Shown here: piece after piece, positions 30,352 through 47,480 of the stretch | Layout of the letters: each line of letters opens with the position of its first letter | How positions within the stretch are numbered: the first letter of the stretch is position 1 | Origin: Candidatus Limnocylindrales bacterium | GTDB taxonomy: Bacteria > Moduliflexota > Moduliflexia > Moduliflexales > JAUQPW01 | Direction: 5' to 3' | DNA length: 64,000 bases | NCBI GenBank assembly: GCA_035559535.1 | Contig: DATMBG010000025.1 | Location: forward strand, 1 to 64,000 | Translations under genes and position numbers: made by a program | Notes under the pieces: generated by a model | Seen by the model: only the letters and a program-made list of their open reading frames with translations | Told to the model about the DNA's origin: nothing | Databases searched by the model: none

Positions 30352-30954
30352 ATGAATACCCAGAGTCATGCCATTCTTAATCTCTTTTTATTAAGAAAAA
30401 CCCTTGAAAAAAAGCCTATTCCTGTAGATCATCTCAATTCTGTCATTGTAGGCGGATCTATTTTGCCAGATATTCCCATCTTATTCTTTACCTTTTGGTA
30501 TCGATGGATAGTTCCTACCCCTCACCGGATCATCTGGAAGACCCTTTACTTTCGGGAAGACTGGCAGACGCTTTTCAATCTTTTTCACTCCTTTCCTATT
30601 TTTTTAATTCTGACCGGACTGGCGTATTATTTTTCTAAGCCCCGCCTATGGATTTTTTTTATGGCCAGCCTCTTGCACTTTTCCGAAGATTTTTTTGTCC
30701 ATCAAGAAGATGGCCATGCCCATTTCTTTCCCTTGAGTTCGTATAAATTTATCTCTCCCATCTCTTATTGGGACCCGGGGAGTTTTGGTCAATATTTTTA
30801 CATTTTTGAGTCTTTCCTCATGTTGGTCATCTCTTTTCCTGTGTTCAGATATATAAAGACCGGATGGGGCAAGGTCTTATTAGTTTTAGCCAATGCTTCC
30901 TTATGGGGAGGTCCTGTTTTTTGGCGTTTTGTATTTTCTCATTCTCTTCCTTAG
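30352..30954 (+). CDS. membrane protein, putative metal-dependent hydrolase (YdjM-like)
   Basis: H, ILPD, FHS, LH..ED..VH..D.H motifs with TM segments. Confidence 0.65.
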   Translation: MNTQSHAILNLFLLRKTLEKKPIPVDHLNSVIVGGSILPDIPILFFTFWYRWIVPTPHRIIWKTLYFREDWQTLFNLFHSFPIFLILTGLAYYFSKPRLWIFFMASLLHFSEDFFVHQEDGHAHFFPLSSYKFISPISYWDPGSFGQYFYIFESFLMLVISFPVFRYIKTGWGKVLLVLANASLWGGPVFWRFVFSHSLP

Positions 30955-32149: not shown

Positions 32150-32980
32150 ATGATTTTTAAACAACGTGTATCCCGTGAAAGAGGTCTTATTGAAGGAGAT
32201 AGGCTCATAGAACTTCATCTTTATCCTGGAAATCTCTGTAACCGGGAGTGTTCGTTCTGTACCGTCTTAGGAAACCCCAGGGGCTGGTACAAAAACTATA
32301 CTTCAGAACATTTGGAAGGAGCGCTTCAGGCGGTTTGTACCCACGAAGGGGCTACCATTAAATTTTACGGCGGTGAACCGACGCTGGATTTTGAGAACGT
32401 TATCTGGGCCATGGGGTATCTCAGAGAGAAAGGATTCCGGGGATCTTTTGTGATCTATTCCAATGGAATCCAGGCCACCCGATTGATTCAAATGATAGAA
32501 TCCGATCCCTTAAAACGGACCACCGCTTCCTTAAACTATTCCATTACCACGGGAGATGGTGCCCCCCCCATGCCTGAGAAGGCCCTTAAAATACTGGAAG
32601 AATATGAATCCAAGCATCCGGGAACTATTGCCATTGGGCATCCTGCCATTTTGGATATGGGAAGGGGTTTTGAATCCTTCCGAGGGGATTCAACCCGACC
32701 CAAGCAGAGTAGCCAGTGCCCCCATTGCTATCCCGTATTAACCACCCGGGGCCGTTTCCATGCCTGTCCTTTTGCCGTTGAAATCGAGGCTCCCCATTTT
32801 CAACTGGGTACCTTACACTCTTCCCCTGGGCAAATCTCCAGGAACTTTAAAATATTTCTAAACTGGTTGGATACCGTCCATGAACCCTATGCCGTAAAAC
32901 ATCATTTACCGGCCTGTACCGTTTGCCATAAACATCTGAAGGATCTTCCGATCCCTTCGTTCCTTCCCGAAAAGGCTTAA
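32150..32980 (+). CDS. radical SAM protein
   Basis: CNRECSFC, YGGEPTL, SNG; extra C-terminal cysteines (CPHC, HAC, CTVC). Confidence 0.9.
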   Translation: MIFKQRVSRERGLIEGDRLIELHLYPGNLCNRECSFCTVLGNPRGWYKNYTSEHLEGALQAVCTHEGATIKFYGGEPTLDFENVIWAMGYLREKGFRGSFVIYSNGIQATRLIQMIESDPLKRTTASLNYSITTGDGAPPMPEKALKILEEYESKHPGTIAIGHPAILDMGRGFESFRGDSTRPKQSSQCPHCYPVLTTRGRFHACPFAVEIEAPHFQLGTLHSSPGQISRNFKIFLNWLDTVHEPYAVKHHLPACTVCHKHLKDLPIPSFLPEKA

Positions 32981-33026: not shown

Positions 33027-33055
33027 TTGACTATCTCCTTGAAAATAGTTATAGT
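33027..33055 (+). promoter_or_regulatory. sigma-70 promoter for the polymerase-accA unit
   Basis: TTGACT-17 nt-TATAGT. Confidence 0.65.
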
Positions 33056-33142
33056 GCATCATCAAAGCTGGTCAACAAAGGAAAAAAAAGAAAAGGAGTT
33101 CTGAATATTTCTCTCATCTGAACTTTTAAGACATTTCCAGGT

Positions 33143-34885
33143 ATGGGTATGCTTATTACAAGGACAGAGGATCTTTACCGCATACTTCCCGAGTTGGAAA
33201 AAATGGATCTGGTTGCCGTAGATACCGAGACAACGGGACTGGATCCCCATCTGAATCAGGTCATCTTGTTCCAGATCGGAACGCCAACAAAACAATTTCT
33301 CATTGATACCCGAAAGGCTTCTCTAGAACCCTTGAGATCTTTTCTGGAGGGTCCCAAGCCCAAAGTTTTACATAATGCCAAATTTGATTACAAAATGATT
33401 CGTGGCACGTTTGGAATTAAAATGGAGAATCTGATCGATACGATGATTCTGGAGCAGGTACTGACCAGTGGCGCGCAGGAAAGGGGTTTTGGACTCAAAG
33501 ATTTGGCCGCCCAGTATTTGAATATTGACATGGATAAGTCGGAACGAAGCAGTTTCATGGCCCACACCGGAGATTTTACAGAAGCTCAGCTGGATTATGC
33601 CATTCGGGATATCATCCATACGTATCAAATCCTTCTAAAACAGGTACCCAAGATCGTTCAACAGGGTCTTGAACACACGGCCAAACTGGAGTGTTTGGTT
33701 ATTCCAGCATTTGGAGATATGGAGTTCGATGGGTTTTTCCTGGATACGGAAAAGTGGAATCAGTTGATCAAAATTTCTGAGATAGAGCGAGATAAGGCTA
33801 AAGCGGAGTTGGACCGGATCTTTAAAGCGACCCGGAAAAGTGATAATTTATTTGGATGGGTAGATATCAATTATGATAGTGACGAGCAGCTCAAGAAAGC
33901 CCTGGCCGATCTTGGGATCCATGTGGAAGATACCAGCCGGGAAACCTTAATGGGTATCAAGCATGAAGTTAAAGATTGGCTCCTGATCTACCGGGAGCAT
34001 CAAAAAGTCCTCAGTACCTATGGAGAAAGTTTCCTCAAGCATATCCATCCCAAAACAGGTCGCATCCACTGTGACTTTAAACAGCTTGGAGCAGAAAGTG
34101 GCCGTGTTTCCTGTACCAACCCAAACCTTCAAAATATCAAGGCAGAATCTGAGTTCCGAAGCGCGTTTGTAGCCCCCCCGGGACGAAAGATCATCACCTG
34201 CGATTATAGCGGTTGTGAATTACGAATTATTGCAGAATTGAGTGAGGATCCTGTTTTCTTGAAAACCTTCCATGAAGGGGGAGATTTACATGCCATTGTA
34301 GCGTCTACCATGTTTAACAAACCGGTCAGTAAGACTGAGAACCCTGAGTTACGGAAACAGGCTAAATTTATTAATTTTGGTCTGGCCTACGGGATGGGTG
34401 CGCAAGGTTTAGCCACTCTGGTCGGCTGCTCCGAGAAAGAAGCTGAAAAACTCCTCAATCAATACTTTAAAACCTATCCTAAAATTAAAAAGTTTTTAGA
34501 TAATGCAGCGAAAAAAGCCTTAAAAGAAGGTTATTCGGAAACCATCGGAGGACGAAAACGGTATTACGATATTTCCCAGATTCATTCCAATCCCAGGGAG
34601 CGTGCGGCCATTGAACGTAAAGCAAAGAATGCACCTATTCAGGGTACCAATGCAGATATGACCAAACTGGCCCTGGTCTATATACGAGAAGAGTTTAAAA
34701 AACGTAATCTGGATGCTTTACTGGTGAACACCGTTCATGATGAGATTGTGGTGGAAAGTGCAGAGGAGATTGCCGAAGAAGTTGGAAAACTCGTGCATGA
34801 TTGTATGGTTAAGGCTGGGAAATATTATCTGACCAAGGTTCCCGTTGAAGTCGAGTACGAGGTGGCCGAATTTTGGAAGAAATAG
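33143..34885 (+). CDS. polA: family A DNA polymerase, 3'-5' exonuclease plus polymerase only (no 5'-3' nuclease), Aquificae/apicoplast-like
   Basis: ExoI DTETTG, ExoII HNAKFD, Exo[21 protein letters not shown], motif A DYSGCELR, motif [15 protein letters not shown], motif C VHDEIV. Confidence 0.93.
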
Positions 34886-34893
34886 GTGAAGCC

Positions 34894-35856
34894 ATGGGCG
34901 CAACCTACGAATTAAGTTTCGAGAAGAAGATCATCGAAATTGAAAATAAGATCGCGGAACTTAAACGGCTTTCTATCGGGGAAGAGGTAGATTTTTCTGA
35001 AGAGATTCGAAAATTAGAAAAGAAAGCCAGCGTCTTAACCCAGGAGATTTTCTCTAAACTTACCGATTGGGAAAGAACGCAGGTAGCCCGACATCCCAAT
35101 CGGCCTTATTTTTTAGATTATATAAGCCGGATAACAACGGATTTTATAGAACTTCATGGAGATCGTCACTTTGGCGATGATAAGGCCATCGTGGGAGGAT
35201 TGGCCAAGCTAGATGGACGATCCGTTGTGTTTATCGGGCACCAGAAGGGACGAACAACCAAGGAAAATATTGTTCGCAACTTTGGTATGCCTCACCCGGA
35301 GGGGTATCGAAAAGCTTTGCGGTTAATGAAACTGGCCGAAAAATTTAAGAAACCCATCATTACCATGATCGATACCCCGGGAGCTTATCCGGGTATCGGT
35401 GCCGAGGAACGAGGGCAGGCCGAGGCCATTGCGGTTAATCTTCTGGAGATGTCGAAGCTTCAGGTTCCTATCCTCGTGGTCATCATCGGTGAAGGGGGAA
35501 GTGGAGGGGCTTTAGCTTTAGGAGTCGGTAATCGGGTACTCATGCTTGAAAATTCCATTTACTCGGTTATTTCCCCGGAAGGCTGTGCTGCGATACTCTG
35601 GGAAGATCAAACCAAAGCCCCCGAAGCGGCTGAAAGGCTCTGCCTTACCGCCAACCACCTGATGGCTTTAGGAGTTATCGATGAGATTGTAAAGGAACCC
35701 CTGGGAGGAGCCCATAAAAACCACGATGAGATGGCCTCTATCCTTCGAGAAGCCCTTAAACGGCATCTCAAAGAGCTGGACCTGTTCACCCCGGAAGAAC
35801 TGGTCGAGCAGCGATATCAAAAATTCCGTGCCATGGGTGTATTTGAGGAAGGATAA
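34894..35856 (+). CDS. accA: acetyl-CoA carboxylase carboxyltransferase subunit alpha
   Basis: [62 protein letters not shown]. Confidence 0.97.
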
Positions 35857-36393: not shown

Positions 36394-38148
36394 TTAAACT
36401 AAGGCTTGCCGAATAGCGGTCTCCAGTTTTACCAGATCGGTCCTTACCTCTTTACCCAGATGGACCCGCAACGCCCGTCGATCCCGTTCCGTCAATACCT
36501 GGAAATCACCCCGTGCCTGGGCTGCTTTTACCACTCCAAAGGTATATTTCTGTCCGGGTACCGGCAAGTCTATGGCATCTTCACAGGTAATTTGTAAAAA
36601 GACCCCCCGGTTCGGTCCCCCTTTATAAACCTGACCGGTAGAGTGTAAGAAACGAGGCCCAAAGCCCAGGCAGGTGGCTACCTGTTTGGCGTCCCGCACG
36701 GCATGTCGCAGAGCTTGCAGGAGTTTCTCGTGAGCCTCATTCATTTCCACGTAGGCCAGAACTGCAAAATAGTCGTTCGCCTGGAGTCGATTTAAGTGGG
36801 CTTTAAGATAAGTTACCAATGATGGGTCCGACTCTACGGCTTCTTTCAGCGCTCTGGCGTTCTTCTCATCGGTAAAGAGCTGGAGACTACCCTCTTCCAG
36901 AATCGGAATTTCCGGCGGAAGTGCACCGGTTCGTTCATATTCGCTTGTTAGTTTCCGCGTTTCCTCTTTACTGGCTTCCACATCCGGCTGGTCAAAGGGA
37001 TTAATTCCTAAGATGGAGCCGGCAACGGCCGTTGCCATCTCCCAACGAAAGAACTCTTCCCCTAAATCGTAGATCTCATTTACAGAGATACGGACTACTG
37101 GCTGTCCGGCCTGTTCGAGACGGTCTATGGCCTTATCTTGAGACTCATCCGGCTCAGACTCCAACCTGATATAAATAAAGATCCGATCCTGTCCATACAC
37201 GTCGGGAGAACCCAAAGATTCACGATCCACAGGAATCAACCCCTTCCCTTCTTTGCCGGTTGATTCCGCAAGCAATTGCTCTAACCAGGCCCCCAGGTCA
37301 TAAATGCCCGGTGAAGTGATGAGGGTAACCTTATCATAACCCCGATTGGCCAGGACTCCCAGGATAGTCCCCAACACAACCCCGGGGTTTTCTTCGATGG
37401 GCATGGAAGGCTTACAAGCCCGGACCATGTCTTCGGTGTGGCTCAAGAACCTCTCTACGTCTACTCCCATGATGGCAGAGGGAATCATTCCAAAATCCGA
37501 AAGGGCGGAGTACCGACCTCCGATACTGGGTACCCCGAAGAAAATATGACGGAAACCATCCTTTTCAGCCATCTGCTGCAGCTTCGAGCCCGGATCCGTG
37601 ATGGCAATAAAACGGTTGCCGACTTCTTTTTCGCCGACCACTCGTTTAACCTGCTCGAAGAAATACTGCTTAAAGATGTTGGGTTCGAGAGTACTTCCCG
37701 ACTTACTGGATACGATAAACAGGGTGCTGGCCAGATCGATTTTGCTTTCGAAGGTGTGAATTTGAGCCGGATCTGTGGAATCCAGAACCAACAGTTCGGG
37801 ATAACCGGCCTGTTTACCGAACGTCATCTTCATGACTTCAGGACAGAGACTGGATCCCCCCATTCCTAAAAGCAAGGCGTGGGAGAATCTGGCATTTTTC
37901 ACCTCTTCGGCAATACTTTTAAAGCGTTGGAGGTGTGCCAGTTGATCTGCCGTAATCTCTAACCATCCCAGCCAGTTTCCCTCTTCGGTTCCCGTCCAGA
38001 GAGAGGCATCCCGTGCCCACAACCGCCTGACCTTATCCTCTCTCTGCCAGGCTTCGAGGGATGTCTTAACAGCAGCGGTGAGGTCCTCGGATAGTTTGAA
38101 AGTTTGACGGTTGATGCGATAGGTAGAAACGGCTTCCATATTTTTCAT
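36394..38148 (-). CDS. pgi: glucose-6-phosphate isomerase (PGI half of the Tal/Pgi-type protein)
   Basis: LGMGGSSL, SSKSGSTLE, AITDPGS, IGGRYSALS, QLLAESTGK, NPFDQPDVE, GPRFLHSTGQ. Confidence 0.88.
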   Translation of the reverse strand: MKNMEAVSTYRINRQTFKLSEDLTAAVKTSLEAWQREDKVRRLWARDASLWTGTEEGNWLGWLEITADQLAHLQRFKSIAEEVKNARFSHALLLGMGGSSLCPEVMKMTFGKQAGYPELLVLDSTDPAQIHTFESKIDLASTLFIVSSKSGSTLEPNIFKQYFFEQVKRVVGEKEVGNRFIAITDPGSKLQQMAEKDGFRHIFFGVPSIGGRYSALSDFGMIPSAIMGVDVERFLSHTEDMVRACKPSMPIEENPGVVLGTILGVLANRGYDKVTLITSPGIYDLGAWLEQLLAESTGKEGKGLIPVDRESLGSPDVYGQDRIFIYIRLESEPDESQDKAIDRLEQAGQPVVRISVNEIYDLGEEFFRWEMATAVAGSILGINPFDQPDVEASKEETRKLTSEYERTGALPPEIPILEEGSLQLFTDEKNARALKEAVESDPSLVTYLKAHLNRLQANDYFAVLAYVEMNEAHEKLLQALRHAVRDAKQVATCLGFGPRFLHSTGQVYKGGPNRGVFLQITCEDAIDLPVPGQKYTFGVVKAAQARGDFQVLTERDRRALRVHLGKEVRTDLVKLETAIRQALV

Positions 38149-45196: not shown

Positions 45197-45589
45197 ATGG
45201 AACTGGATCTATTAGAGTATGTGCTTTATAGTAGCTTAAGCTTATTATTTACCTGGTTGCTTTTCCGAAGAGGACCCAGACTTAGAAGTTCAAACGTGAA
45301 ATTTATCTATTGGACCCCGGTTGTAAGGCGAATTGTTATCCTGGTAGTGGGTTGGTTTTTTTTGATTTTGGGAGTAGTAGGGTTATTTCTTCCTATACTG
45401 CAAGGTTTTCTATTCCTGGCCATTGGGTTAGCGATTCTTTCTAAGGAAAGCGAAACGGCTAACCGAATTCTAAAATGGCTGAAAAGAAAATATCCCCAAC
45501 CTTACGCCCGATTTACGCTTCTTAAAAGAAAGATTCTTAAAAGATTCTCCAGGAATTCAATTTCCCATGACCGAGAGCAAGATAACTAA
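45197..45589 (+). CDS. small membrane protein (PGPGW/DUF454-like)
   Basis: GWFFLILGVVGLFLPILQGFLFLAIGLAILSKE. Confidence 0.7.
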   Translation: MELDLLEYVLYSSLSLLFTWLLFRRGPRLRSSNVKFIYWTPVVRRIVILVVGWFFLILGVVGLFLPILQGFLFLAIGLAILSKESETANRILKWLKRKYPQPYARFTLLKRKILKRFSRNSISHDREQDN

Positions 45590-47480
45590 ATCGGATAATT
45601 TATTCCGGAAGCTTCAACATCTGCCGGATGATCCCGGGGTTTATTTAATGAAGGACGTAGAAGGGCGGATCATCTATGTAGGAAAGGCGAGGTCTTTAAA
45701 AAATCGAGTACGTTCCTATTTTCAAGAATCCCGTTCCCTCTCTCCGAAAATCGATACCCTGGTCTCTCAAATTGCAGACCTGGAGTATATTGTCACAGAC
45801 TCTGAATTGGAAGCTCTCATTCTGGAAGGGACCCTCATCAAGAAACACAAGCCCAAATTTAATGTGGTTCTCAAAGATGACAAGAATTTTCCCTACCTCA
45901 AATTAACTCTGCAGGAGGAGTTTCCTCGAGTTATTGCAGTTCGGAAAATCAAAAAAGATGGAGCCCTTTACTTTGGCCCTTATATTCCCTCCAATGCCCT
46001 GTGGAAGACCTTGAAACTTATCCATAAAATCTTTCCCATCCGCCAATGTACCTATACTATCAGTTTCAATTGCATGGAACGGCCCTGCCTGGACTATCAG
46101 ATTGGGCAATGTATCGGACCTTGTGCGGCCATGTGTACGAAAGAAGAATACGATAGACTGGTTCAAGAGGTTCGGCTCTTTTTGGAAGGTAAGAAAGAAG
46201 ATCTGGTTAAAAGTCTTCAGGCCAAGATGGAAGAGAAAGCCGCCAACCTGGAATTTGAACAGGCTGCTAAAATTCGGGATCAGATCACGGCTATCCAAAG
46301 GGTCATGGAACGTCAGAAGGTCATTTCCATGGGATTTGAAAATCAAGATATCCTGGCCTATGCCGTACAGGGAGATCTGGTGAACGTTCAGATGTTTTTC
46401 ATCCGAAACGGGGTAATGGTCGGGCGAAGCGACTTTAACTTAACCCGCTCCGACGAGCTTGAAAAGGCAGAGATATTAACCTCTTTCATCAAGCAGTTTT
46501 ATGCCCGGGAGGTATTCATTCCTGAGGAAATCGTTCTCCCCGAGCCGATTGGTGAGGAGGAAATTCTTTCCGAGTGGTTATCGCGTCGTAAAGGAAAAAA
46601 AGTTAACTTGATAGTCCCTCAACGGGGAAAAAAGAAACGACTTGTCGACATGGCCTTTAAAAATGCGGAACTTGCCCTGAGGGAAGAAATCGAAATCGGA
46701 TCCGGAGAAGGTCCCGAGGTTTTAGAGCAACTCCAGAAAAGCCTGGGTCTCAGGAATCTTCCTGTCCGCATTGAGGCCTTTGATATGTCCAACATTCAGG
46801 GGGGCTATGCCGTAGGGTCCATGGTGGTGTGGAAAGATGGAAAAGCTGCCAGATCGGAATACAAAAAGTTTAAAATTAAATATACCCCCGGACCGGATGA
46901 TTTTGGAATGATGCGGGAAGTGCTCCGAAGGAGGTATAGTCGGGTTTTAAAGGAGGGTCTTGAACTCCCGGATCTTATTGTCATCGATGGAGGAAAAGGT
47001 CAATTGAGTGCCGCTTTGGAAGTTTTAGAAGAACTTCGTGTACGCCATCCCGACGTAATCGGTCTTGCTAAGGCCAAAGGTGTCAAATATTCTGAAACAG
47101 ATAAGGAAAAAATCTTTCTAAAGCCTGAAGGGGATCCTTTGATTCTGCCCAGGGAATCCAAAGAATTACAGCTTCTTCAAAGAATTCGAGATGAAGCCCA
47201 TCGGTTTGCAGTAACGTATCATAGAACGGTGCGGAAAAAGGCAACACTCCATTCGATTCTGGATGAGATTCCAGGAGTAGGACCTCAGAGGAAGAAAGCC
47301 CTTCTGAAGCATTTTGGAAATATTCAAAAGATTCGAGAAGCTTCTGTAGAGGAACTTCTGAAAGTACCTCTCATCAACAGAAAACTGGCCGAAACCATCT
47401 GGCAGTTCCTTACTTCTACCCCAACCCTCCCCATGGATAGGATAAGAGGGTCCATCCCTCTACCTATAGAGGGAAGATAG
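45567..47480 (+). CDS. uvrC: excinuclease ABC subunit C
   Basis: GIY-YIG (PGVYLM..IYVGKA), LEFEQAAKIRD, RIEAFDMS, IDGGKGQL, RDEAHRFA, HhH (IPGVG). Confidence 0.98.
   Translation: MTESKITKSDNLFRKLQHLPDDPGVYLMKDVEGRIIYVGKARSLKNRVRSYFQESRSLSPKIDTLVSQIADLEYIVTDSELEALILEGTLIKKHKPKFNVVLKDDKNFPYLKLTLQEEFPRVIAVRKIKKDGALYFGPYIPSNALWKTLKLIHKIFPIRQCTYTISFNCMERPCLDYQIGQCIGPCAAMCTKEEYDRLVQEVRLFLEGKKEDLVKSLQAKMEEKAANLEFEQAAKIRDQITAIQRVMERQKVISMGFENQDILAYAVQGDLVNVQMFFIRNGVMVGRSDFNLTRSDELEKAEILTSFIKQFYAREVFIPEEIVLPEPIGEEEILSEWLSRRKGKKVNLIVPQRGKKKRLVDMAFKNAELALREEIEIGSGEGPEVLEQLQKSLGLRNLPVRIEAFDMSNIQGGYAVGSMVVWKDGKAARSEYKKFKIKYTPGPDDFGMMREVLRRRYSRVLKEGLELPDLIVIDGGKGQLSAALEVLEELRVRHPDVIGLAKAKGVKYSETDKEKIFLKPEGDPLILPRESKELQLLQRIRDEAHRFAVTYHRTVRKKATLHSILDEIPGVGPQRKKALLKHFGNIQKIREASVEELLKVPLINRKLAETIWQFLTSTPTLPMDRIRGSIPLPIEGR

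Follow-up and report, generated by a model that had tools for sequence, protein, structure and literature searches.

A replicative C-family DNA polymerase is encoded by all of more than 3,000 complete bacterial genomes, and a species tree has been built on DnaE, according to a recent survey (PMC12926913). A second survey found a homologue of the alpha subunit of DNA polymerase III (Pol III) in every one of about 2,000 genomes (PMC3919608). Both surveys were restricted to complete and mostly cultured genomes. Here we describe a family A DNA polymerase of 580 amino acids (aa), P0001, which combines an exonuclease with a polymerase domain and has no 5' nuclease domain. It is encoded in a stretch of 64,000 nucleotides (nt), hereafter the window, at positions 1 to 64,000 of the forward strand of contig C25 (DATMBG010000025.1) of the source assembly G000 (GCA_035559535.1, Candidatus Limnocylindrales bacterium).

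Family A polymerases of comparable architecture have been described before. Czernecki et al. (2023) distinguished a 'Hot Spring 1' cluster (Aquificae-like and apicoplast enzymes) and a 'Hot Spring 2' cluster (Acidobacteria and WWE3), the latter being PolA cluster #10, which is exonuclease-proficient, devoid of the 5' nuclease and with no known partners; the available part of their report gives the role in prokaryotes as unknown and makes no mention of DnaE or Pol III (PMC10201439). Two further groups appear in Timinskas et al. (2026; PMC12926913). PolA2, or APEX, of Actinobacteria has no 5' nuclease and bears the beta-clamp motif QxxLF in a loop, and PolA3 is exonuclease-proficient, lacks the 5' nuclease, is scattered over phyla and is described as prophage-borne.

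From comparisons of sequence and gene content, we think it fairly likely that P0001 is the main chromosomal replicase of its organism and that DnaE has been displaced.

Polymerase genes of the source genome and its relatives

The source assembly (5.61 Mb in 58 contigs, 95.76% complete, with no N) had no match to the C-family polymerase families PF07733 and PF17657. The DnaE model TIGR00594 returned only a 25.6-bit match to the PHP domain, in an open reading frame (ORF) of 294 aa, and tblastn with the DnaE of four relatives gave no match at 1e-3. We also ran a local DnaE hidden Markov model (HMM), built on 23 sequences and applied without filters, on the 27,640 six-frame ORFs of at least 60 aa in G000, and retrieved small PHP or OB-fold proteins only, at no more than 38 bits. 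The sequence-only reading of this locus had named an intact dnaE elsewhere in the genome as evidence that would speak against its proposal; our inventory of dnaE and polC found none in G000 or in its sole congener, G001.

Overall, PF07733 was present in 29 of the 31 genomes sampled, and the two without it are G000 and G001 (97% complete, 180 contigs). The other 29 genomes, which serve as controls, all have DnaE, even at 59-88% completeness. Among the same 31 genomes, the 580-aa polymerase occurs only in G000 (100% identity) and G001 (99%); the other family A matches are Pol I proteins of 840-957 aa with at most 40% identity. In particular, the seven relatives of the same order encode a DnaE of about 1,190 aa, and none of them has a PolA of the 580-aa type.

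The rest of the replisome is in place. G000 keeps dnaA-dnaN, DnaG, a HolB-like protein and a 643-aa DnaX composed of domains I-III and a long tail. Since clamp, loader, initiator and primase are kept while DnaE and PolC went undetected, P0001 is the most likely replicase. G000 further encodes a canonical Pol I (a single 909-aa frame with PF00476 and PF02739), a PolX with a PHP domain (PolX-PHP, 589 aa) and PolY (382 aa), and no PolB was found in this genome. The sequence-only reading had suggested a role other than the classical one of Pol I and had counted a canonical polA among the findings unfavourable to it. That gene does exist; its presence also means that P0001 is not a Pol I substitute in G000.

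Two of these proteins have features of their own. The DnaX of G000 (L079:724-2652, minus strand, contig C22) carries a stretch resembling a clamp motif, NSLDLF, in its long linker; its C-terminal domain is not recognised by the Pfam model DnaX_C, which the DnaX proteins of the DnaE-less genomes G031, G047 and G051 keep. The PolX-PHP gene (G000:C38:9542-11308; L091:543-2309) is shared by G000 and G001, the G001 copy having an in-frame TGA, and is represented in the seven same-order relatives by a fragment in one of them.

One alternative is that P0001 is a second family A polymerase with an accessory role in repair or gap filling, and that DnaE is present in both genomes of the genus and was missed by assembly or binning. 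Both assemblies are fragmented drafts resembling metagenome-assembled genomes (MAGs), at 95.8% and 97% completeness, and the same-order relatives all have DnaE. The dnaE of one of them, G006 (G006:C4:498573-500630), lies in a 1,596-aa frame in which the PF07733 match is split into positions 2-66 and 66-260, which looks like an intein, and the dnaE of G005 is interrupted too. An intein of this kind could cause short-read assemblies to break within dnaE. Against this explanation, no fragment whatever of dnaE was found in either assembly, and the control genomes yielded DnaE even when much less complete. Taking these points together with the distribution described below, we regard it as rather unlikely. 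We also looked for traces of a deleted dnaE by mapping the dnaE neighbours of five same-order relatives on G000. The two families of the order differ in these neighbours, so that the test says nothing about deletion; the Nth-like neighbour of the relatives, for instance, matched a MutY paralogue in G000.

Distribution of the subfamily and of DnaE

A scan for further carriers, with one genome per species and with one Treponema Pol I at 32% identity excluded, returned 25 genomes whose polymerases share 39-59% identity with P0001. They are labelled Poribacteria, Acidobacteria, Chloroflexota and Saccharibacteria. Together with G000 and G001, the 27 carriers fall into the following classes according to their C-family polymerases.

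Without any PF07733: 11 of 27 (G000, G001, G031, G033, G036, G044-G047, G051, G055)
With only the error-prone DnaE2, NF004225 above cut-off: 4 of 27 (G032, G042, G043, G048)
With only an ambiguous DnaE2-like protein of about 1,040 aa, under both cut-offs: 3 of 27 (G035, scanned; G039 and G040, assigned by E-value and length)
With a divergent DnaE-like protein of 1,057-1,124 aa, under the NCBIfam cut-off for DnaE: 5 of 27 (all Chloroflexia; catalytic aspartates intact)
With bona fide DnaE1: 4 of 27 (G037, G038, G041, G054), two of them Acidobacteria

The first class includes a chromosome-level record of 3.95 Mb (G031), in which PF07733 is absent and which does not pass TIGR00594 either. Beside the divergent DnaE-like gene of one Chloroflexia genome, G052, lies a 1,143-aa ORF (G052:C20; L077:1927-5358) with a weak PHP match, a partial alpha match (positions 2-93 of 260) and HHH_6, which may be a degenerate C-family relic. 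A similar ORF was sought in G000 and gave no tblastn match at E<=10 and no phmmer match at E<=1.

Two lineages could be sampled in greater depth. PF07733 occurs in 118 of 121 Poribacteria genomes, and 115 of the 118 have a strong match (E<=3.4e-85, frames of about 1,180 aa) that we took as DnaE1 without classification. The subfamily (E<=1e-90) is present in six Poribacteria: four of the six genomes without a DnaE1-class match and two of the 115 with one. In the Candidate Phyla Radiation (CPR), the class to which carrier G051 belongs was represented by 134 genomes, with PF07733 in 14 and the subfamily profile (E<=1e-20) in 119; for the 89 genomes of its order, the corresponding numbers are 1 and 85. 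Of the 120 DnaE-less genomes in the class, 114 carry the subfamily, nearly always as the sole family A match. The 14 DnaE-positive genomes comprise nine without a family A match, two with a weaker and different PolA, and three with the subfamily. One of these three copies is interrupted by a TAA and another is in two pieces, while in the third genome DnaE is represented by a 387-aa fragment at the end of a contig. The finding of a DnaE-positive clade indicates that our search does detect DnaE in this class.

We then examined a closed CPR genome, G237, which consists of a single contig of 1,112,869 bp with no N. The unfiltered local DnaE HMM hit only the PHP domain of PolX, with 18 bits, and the subfamily HMM identified exactly one family A gene. 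The 114 ORFs of at least 570 aa include no polymerases other than the subfamily PolA and PolX, whose genes lie about 6 kb apart. The genome also has primase, gyrase, topoisomerase I, ligase and ribonucleotide reductases. Assembly failure does not explain the absence of DnaE from 120 of 134 CPR genomes, from a single contig of 1.11 Mb and from a chromosome-level record, which further weakens the idea that DnaE was simply missed.

A different explanation accepts that DnaE is gone and assigns replication to another enzyme, such as the canonical Pol I, PolX-PHP or an unrecognised polymerase, leaving P0001 to repair or lagging-strand work. The full Pol I and the PolX-PHP retained by G000 speak for it, as does the presence of PolX-PHP in 25 of the 27 carrier genomes. 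Moreover, 29 of the 114 large ORFs of G237 had no Pfam match at 1e-12, which formally leaves room for an unrecognised polymerase. However, the CPR carriers have no canonical Pol I, the subfamily PolA being their sole family A gene. We rejected PolX-PHP as the DnaE substitute: it is just as common in the DnaE-positive CPR clade (8 of 9 genomes) and hence does not track the loss of DnaE; PolX enzymes are, besides, distributive gap fillers. As for the 29 unannotated ORFs of G237, none has a full-length homologue in G000 by blastp, while PolA, PolX, DnaG and GyrB have one in the same run. We consider it distinctly improbable that another enzyme took over.

The subfamily is thus anticorrelated with DnaE across several phyla. 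With the absence of DnaE from both assemblies of the source genus, this lends strong and unexpected support to the proposal of the sequence-only reading that dnaE was replaced and that P0001 has a replicative role.

Polymerase architecture, insertion loop and locus

The features of the locus, in window coordinates, are as follows.

33027..33055, plus strand: sigma-70-like promoter site TTGACT-17-TATAGT, 88 nt 5' of the ATG (consensus match only)
33143..34885, plus strand: gene of P0001, the 580-aa proofreading family A DNA polymerase with exonuclease and polymerase domains and without 5' nuclease (ORF and Pfam; AlphaFold2 model)
33155..33634, plus strand: DEDDy-type 3'-5' exonuclease domain, residues 5-164 (Pfam PF01612, DNA_pol_A_exo1, 4.9e-32)
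33818..34879, plus strand: family A polymerase domain, residues 226-579, with motifs A, B and C intact (Pfam PF00476, 3e-99)
33827..33862, plus strand: subfamily-specific insertion loop, residues ~229-240 (none of 10 canonical Pol I sequences has it)
33839-33856, plus strand: clamp-binding-like motif SDNLFG, residues 233-238, inside the insertion loop (family alignment)
34894..35856, plus strand: accA, acetyl-CoA carboxylase carboxyltransferase alpha (NF004344, 511 bits, above cut-off)

P0001 belongs to family A, with a PF00476 score of 333 bits against a cut-off of 34.3. Pfam found no 5'-3' nuclease domain (PF02739) in it, the sole PF02739 match of the genome being the 909-aa Pol I. In an alignment of 24 family members, the exonuclease residues D27, E29, N78, D82, Y152 and D156 are invariant, as expected of a DEDDy enzyme, and so are the polymerase residues D354, Y355, E359, R361, K408, F412, G413, Y416, G417, H532, D533 and E534. 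We take these residues to represent motifs ExoI, ExoII and ExoIII (DxE, NxxxFD, YxxxD) and motifs A (DYSxxELR), B (KxxNFGxxYG) and C (HDE). Pfam and the alignment together confirm the initial description of a 580-aa PolA with intact exonuclease and polymerase motifs and no 5'-3' nuclease, and the PolA signatures quoted with that description are present in the sequence. The AlphaFold2 model of P0001 has a mean predicted local distance difference test (pLDDT) of 90.8 and a predicted template modelling score (pTM) of 0.89.

The top NCBIfam model for P0001 is NF011539, 'bifunctional 3'-5' exonuclease/DNA polymerase' (PRK14975.1-3), with 529.6 bits against a cut-off of 640, and on this score P0001 is a relative and not an equivalog of that family. 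It also stays under the cut-offs of the Pol I equivalog models (NF004397, 388 against 720; TIGR00593, 341 against 600) and hence outside canonical Pol I. The same separation is visible in a quick IQ-TREE phylogeny of 38 rows, rooted at midpoint, from which three intein-bearing members, database hits, phage, Aquificae and Prex sequences were left out. The 28 rows of the subfamily and the 10 of canonical Pol I form separate clades, each with a support of 100 in the SH-like approximate likelihood ratio test (SH-aLRT). P0001 is sister to two Poribacteria sequences, those of G037 and G038 (59-60% identity, SH-aLRT 94).

Between its exonuclease and polymerase domains, the subfamily has an insertion of about 12-19 residues compared with 10 canonical Pol I. 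The inserted loop bears a motif, xxDLFG. Of 139 members, 136 have L or M at position 236, 132 have F at position 237, 115 have G at position 238 and 81 have the D; about a third of the members have Q at the first position of the motif. The motif resembles the beta-binding consensus QL[SD]LF and the internal QADMF of the E. coli alpha subunit. The loop is exposed and, to judge from its motif, may bind the clamp; it is also the least confident block of the AlphaFold2 model (pLDDT 58).

We predicted the complex of DnaN with P0001 and obtained a score of 0.47 (0.47, 0.27 and 0.48 in separate runs), while the best of three controls reached 0.00. The runs agree in at least 56% of contacts and the pLDDT of the partner is at least 86. 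Of 80 solved complexes, 58 reach the mark used for this score, as do 2 of 110 mismatched pairs; at values of 0.60 or less, only 7 of the 80 reach it, and so do both mismatches. These counts hold only roughly here because custom alignments were used. The verdict of the prediction is 'weak support', and clamp binding by P0001 is given that strength here.

Other members of the subfamily differ in their additions. Three Chloroflexota members (L049:5302-8793, L052:273-3632 and L057:5485-8823) contain a LAGLIDADG intein inserted at about position 303 of Pfam DNA_pol_A, in the polymerase core near the conserved QGTxAD stretch. Chloroflexota and 'MFD' members (L044, L045, L047-L049, L051-L055, L057 and L058) have an N-terminal extension of 150-310 aa that contains no 5' nuclease. 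The extensions include a zinc-ribbon-like segment rich in Cys and a linker of low complexity, and in some of them a second G[AS]LF stretch immediately precedes the exonuclease domain.

The polymerase gene ends with a TAG at 34883-34885, 8 nt before the accA ATG at 34894, exactly as first read from the sequence. The accA ATG is preceded by a Shine-Dalgarno-like GGTGA, no terminator-like site was found between the two genes, and they are probably co-transcribed. The near-consensus site that had been proposed as its promoter does exist and, with 10 of 12 matching positions, is the best site within 31-37 kb; the number of sites in that interval (9) is, however, no higher than in shuffled sequences (7.7 +/- 3.0).

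A third explanation is that P0001 is the replicase of a mobile element or prophage, of the PolA3 kind, which copies the element and not the chromosome. The published PolA3 provides a precedent (PMC12926913), and the spread of the subfamily over phyla implies horizontal transfer. Eight flanking ORFs scanned with Pfam and NCBIfam encode a sigma-70 factor, a 200-aa protein, an APH-type kinase, a radical SAM protein, AccA, a phosphoglucose isomerase-like protein, a fumarase and a glucokinase. None of the eight matched a phage family, in agreement with the earlier statement that no phage genes flank the polymerase. Housekeeping genes also surround the subfamily gene at nine other loci, the order gatB-PolA-clpB-like recurs in three of three CPR loci, and synteny with the congener is kept. 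The best phage match to P0001, among at least 5,000 phage records, has no more than 31% identity and is no better than enterobacterial Pol I, and the GC content resembles that of the rest of the genome. With housekeeping neighbours and no close phage homologue, P0001 falls outside the prophage-type PolA3, and we give the mobile-element explanation hardly any credence. The subfamily is distinct and chromosomally inherited.

Three of the neighbours deserve mention. The 276-aa radical SAM protein (32150-32980, plus strand), just 5' of the polymerase gene, scores under the Pfam cut-off, and the 200-aa ORF (30352-30954, plus strand) has no Pfam or NCBIfam family; both are conserved in the congener with 91-95% identity. 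On the minus strand, at 36394-38148, a 584-aa protein matches only positions 373-948 of NF007080 (transaldolase/phosphoglucose isomerase; 879 bits) and is the isomerase half on its own.

The sequence-only reading had also placed P0001 in a 'dnaE slot' upstream of accA, a point that remains suggestive. In E. coli K-12, dnaE lies directly 5' of accA. From metagenomes we collected the 80 loci whose accA is most similar (54-65% identity); 56 of them have at least 1.5 kb upstream. Among these 56, dnaE is directly 5' of accA in seven, the most similar locus included, and the subfamily PolA in none. Three of the seven (L184, L249 and L178) have uvrC 0.3-4 kb 3' of accA, and the window has uvrC at 45567-47480 (plus strand), 9.7 kb 3' of accA. 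An ancestral order dnaE-accA-uvrC with the polymerase swapped in place would fit this, on thin evidence. On the other side, none of five same-order relatives (G002, G004, G006, G007 and G008) has accA at E<=1e-40, and different genes flank their dnaE; nor, in other lineages, does accA stand beside the subfamily PolA at any of 26 loci. It seems that the acetyl-CoA carboxylase is not the same in the two families of this order; the AccA of G000 is 59% identical to that of E. coli.

Proposed replicase role and comparison with known systems

On the evidence of gene content across these genomes, we lean towards the view that Pol III alpha was lost in several lineages, which replicate with a beta-tethered, self-proofreading family A polymerase and keep clamp, loader, primase and initiator. 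The lineages concerned would be this genus, a subclade of Poribacteria, some members of Chloroflexota and Acidobacteria, and the greater part of one CPR class. In such a scheme, the DnaX complex would load the beta clamp, P0001 would be tethered to beta via the exposed, subfamily-specific loop with its xxDLFG motif (SDNLFG in P0001) and would proofread with its own exonuclease, and the retained canonical Pol I would remove the primers. The carriers would then represent several stages of replicase displacement, from coexistence, through DnaE2 alone or a degenerate DnaE, to complete loss.

Several observations weigh against a replicase role, in addition to the large ORFs of G237 without a Pfam match. 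Neither genome of the genus is closed, and a dnaE, for instance one bearing an intein as in G005 or G006, may have been missed in both. The nearest relatives of P0001, those of G037 and G038, co-occur with bona fide DnaE1, so the subfamily can coexist with DnaE; this, like the DnaE1 of the two Acidobacteria carriers, also favours an accessory polymerase. In the five Chloroflexia carriers a DnaE-like protein persists, and its catalytic aspartates are intact. The SDNLFG motif of P0001 is without the usual Q at its first position, and the predicted complex gives clamp binding no more than the weak support described above. Finally, genomes within a clade are not independent, and kinship reduces the pattern to about five or six independent losses or lineages, not hundreds.

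In the literature searched, to which subscription-only papers and supplements did not belong, we came across no account of bacteria lacking DnaE and none of the subfamily acting in replication. If a replicase role is true, these lineages would break, for the first time, the rule that Bacteria universally use C-family replicases. The one component thought to define the bacterial replisome would prove replaceable, which bears on the origin of unrelated replicases in the three domains, and DnaE could no longer be treated as a marker or an antibiotic target valid for all bacteria. The 'unknown role' given for a published PolA subfamily would be explained, and a PolA that proofreads and uses the clamp would be worth characterising as a useful enzyme.

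Among the described PolA groups, the sequence-only reading had likened P0001 to the Aquificae and apicoplast enzymes, a label that turned out to be loose. In phmmer searches against the PDB, Klenow (219 bits), Taq (205) and Bst (195) score above apicoplast Prex (190; range 188-190). In Foldseek, the scores are nearly tied, with the apicoplast polymerase on top (TMq 0.88 and 29% identity for apPol, 9qsc_A; 0.83-0.85 for Klenow; 0.84 for the Aquifex pyrophilus polymerase, 8jrb). Compared by host range only, the subfamily fits the 'Hot Spring 2' cluster better. That cluster is described with an intact exonuclease, no 5' nuclease, and Acidobacteria (with a Blastocatellia representative) and CPR hosts (PMC10201439); among the hosts of the subfamily examined here are likewise a Blastocatellia MAG, MAGs of Acidobacteria and one class of the CPR. 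What our data set beside that description is that the CPR carriers have neither another family A gene nor DnaE. With 'Hot Spring 1' and Prex (cd08639), P0001 shares the domain layout, and the apicoplast enzyme is a true replicase; unlike Prex, P0001 has no primase-helicase fusion, and its sequence is no closer to Prex than to E. coli Klenow.

The Klenow part of canonical Pol I has the same exonuclease and polymerase fold and catalytic motifs, at about 30-33% identity. P0001 differs from canonical Pol I in lacking the 5' nuclease, in its extra loop and in belonging to a separate clade, and G000 has its own Pol I besides. PolA2 resembles P0001 as a family A enzyme without 5' nuclease and with a clamp-type motif in a loop. 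However, the exonuclease of PolA2 is inactivated, its motif lies inside the exonuclease domain, and it is confined to Actinobacteria, where it coexists with DnaE1; P0001 has an intact exonuclease and carries its loop between that domain and the polymerase domain.

With Pol III alpha (DnaE1), P0001 would share the job itself, and the use of the beta clamp and DnaX loader via a short internal motif. The two differ in fold, Pol III alpha being a C-family enzyme, and in proofreading, which is provided by the PHP domain or the epsilon subunit for Pol III alpha and is built into P0001. Family A replicases do exist: phage T7 gp5, Pol gamma and the plant and protist organellar polymerases (POPs) are processive given a processivity factor. 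Those of T7 and organelles rely on thioredoxin or dedicated subunits and copy small genomes, whereas P0001 is proposed to copy a 5.6-Mb chromosome with the bacterial clamp.

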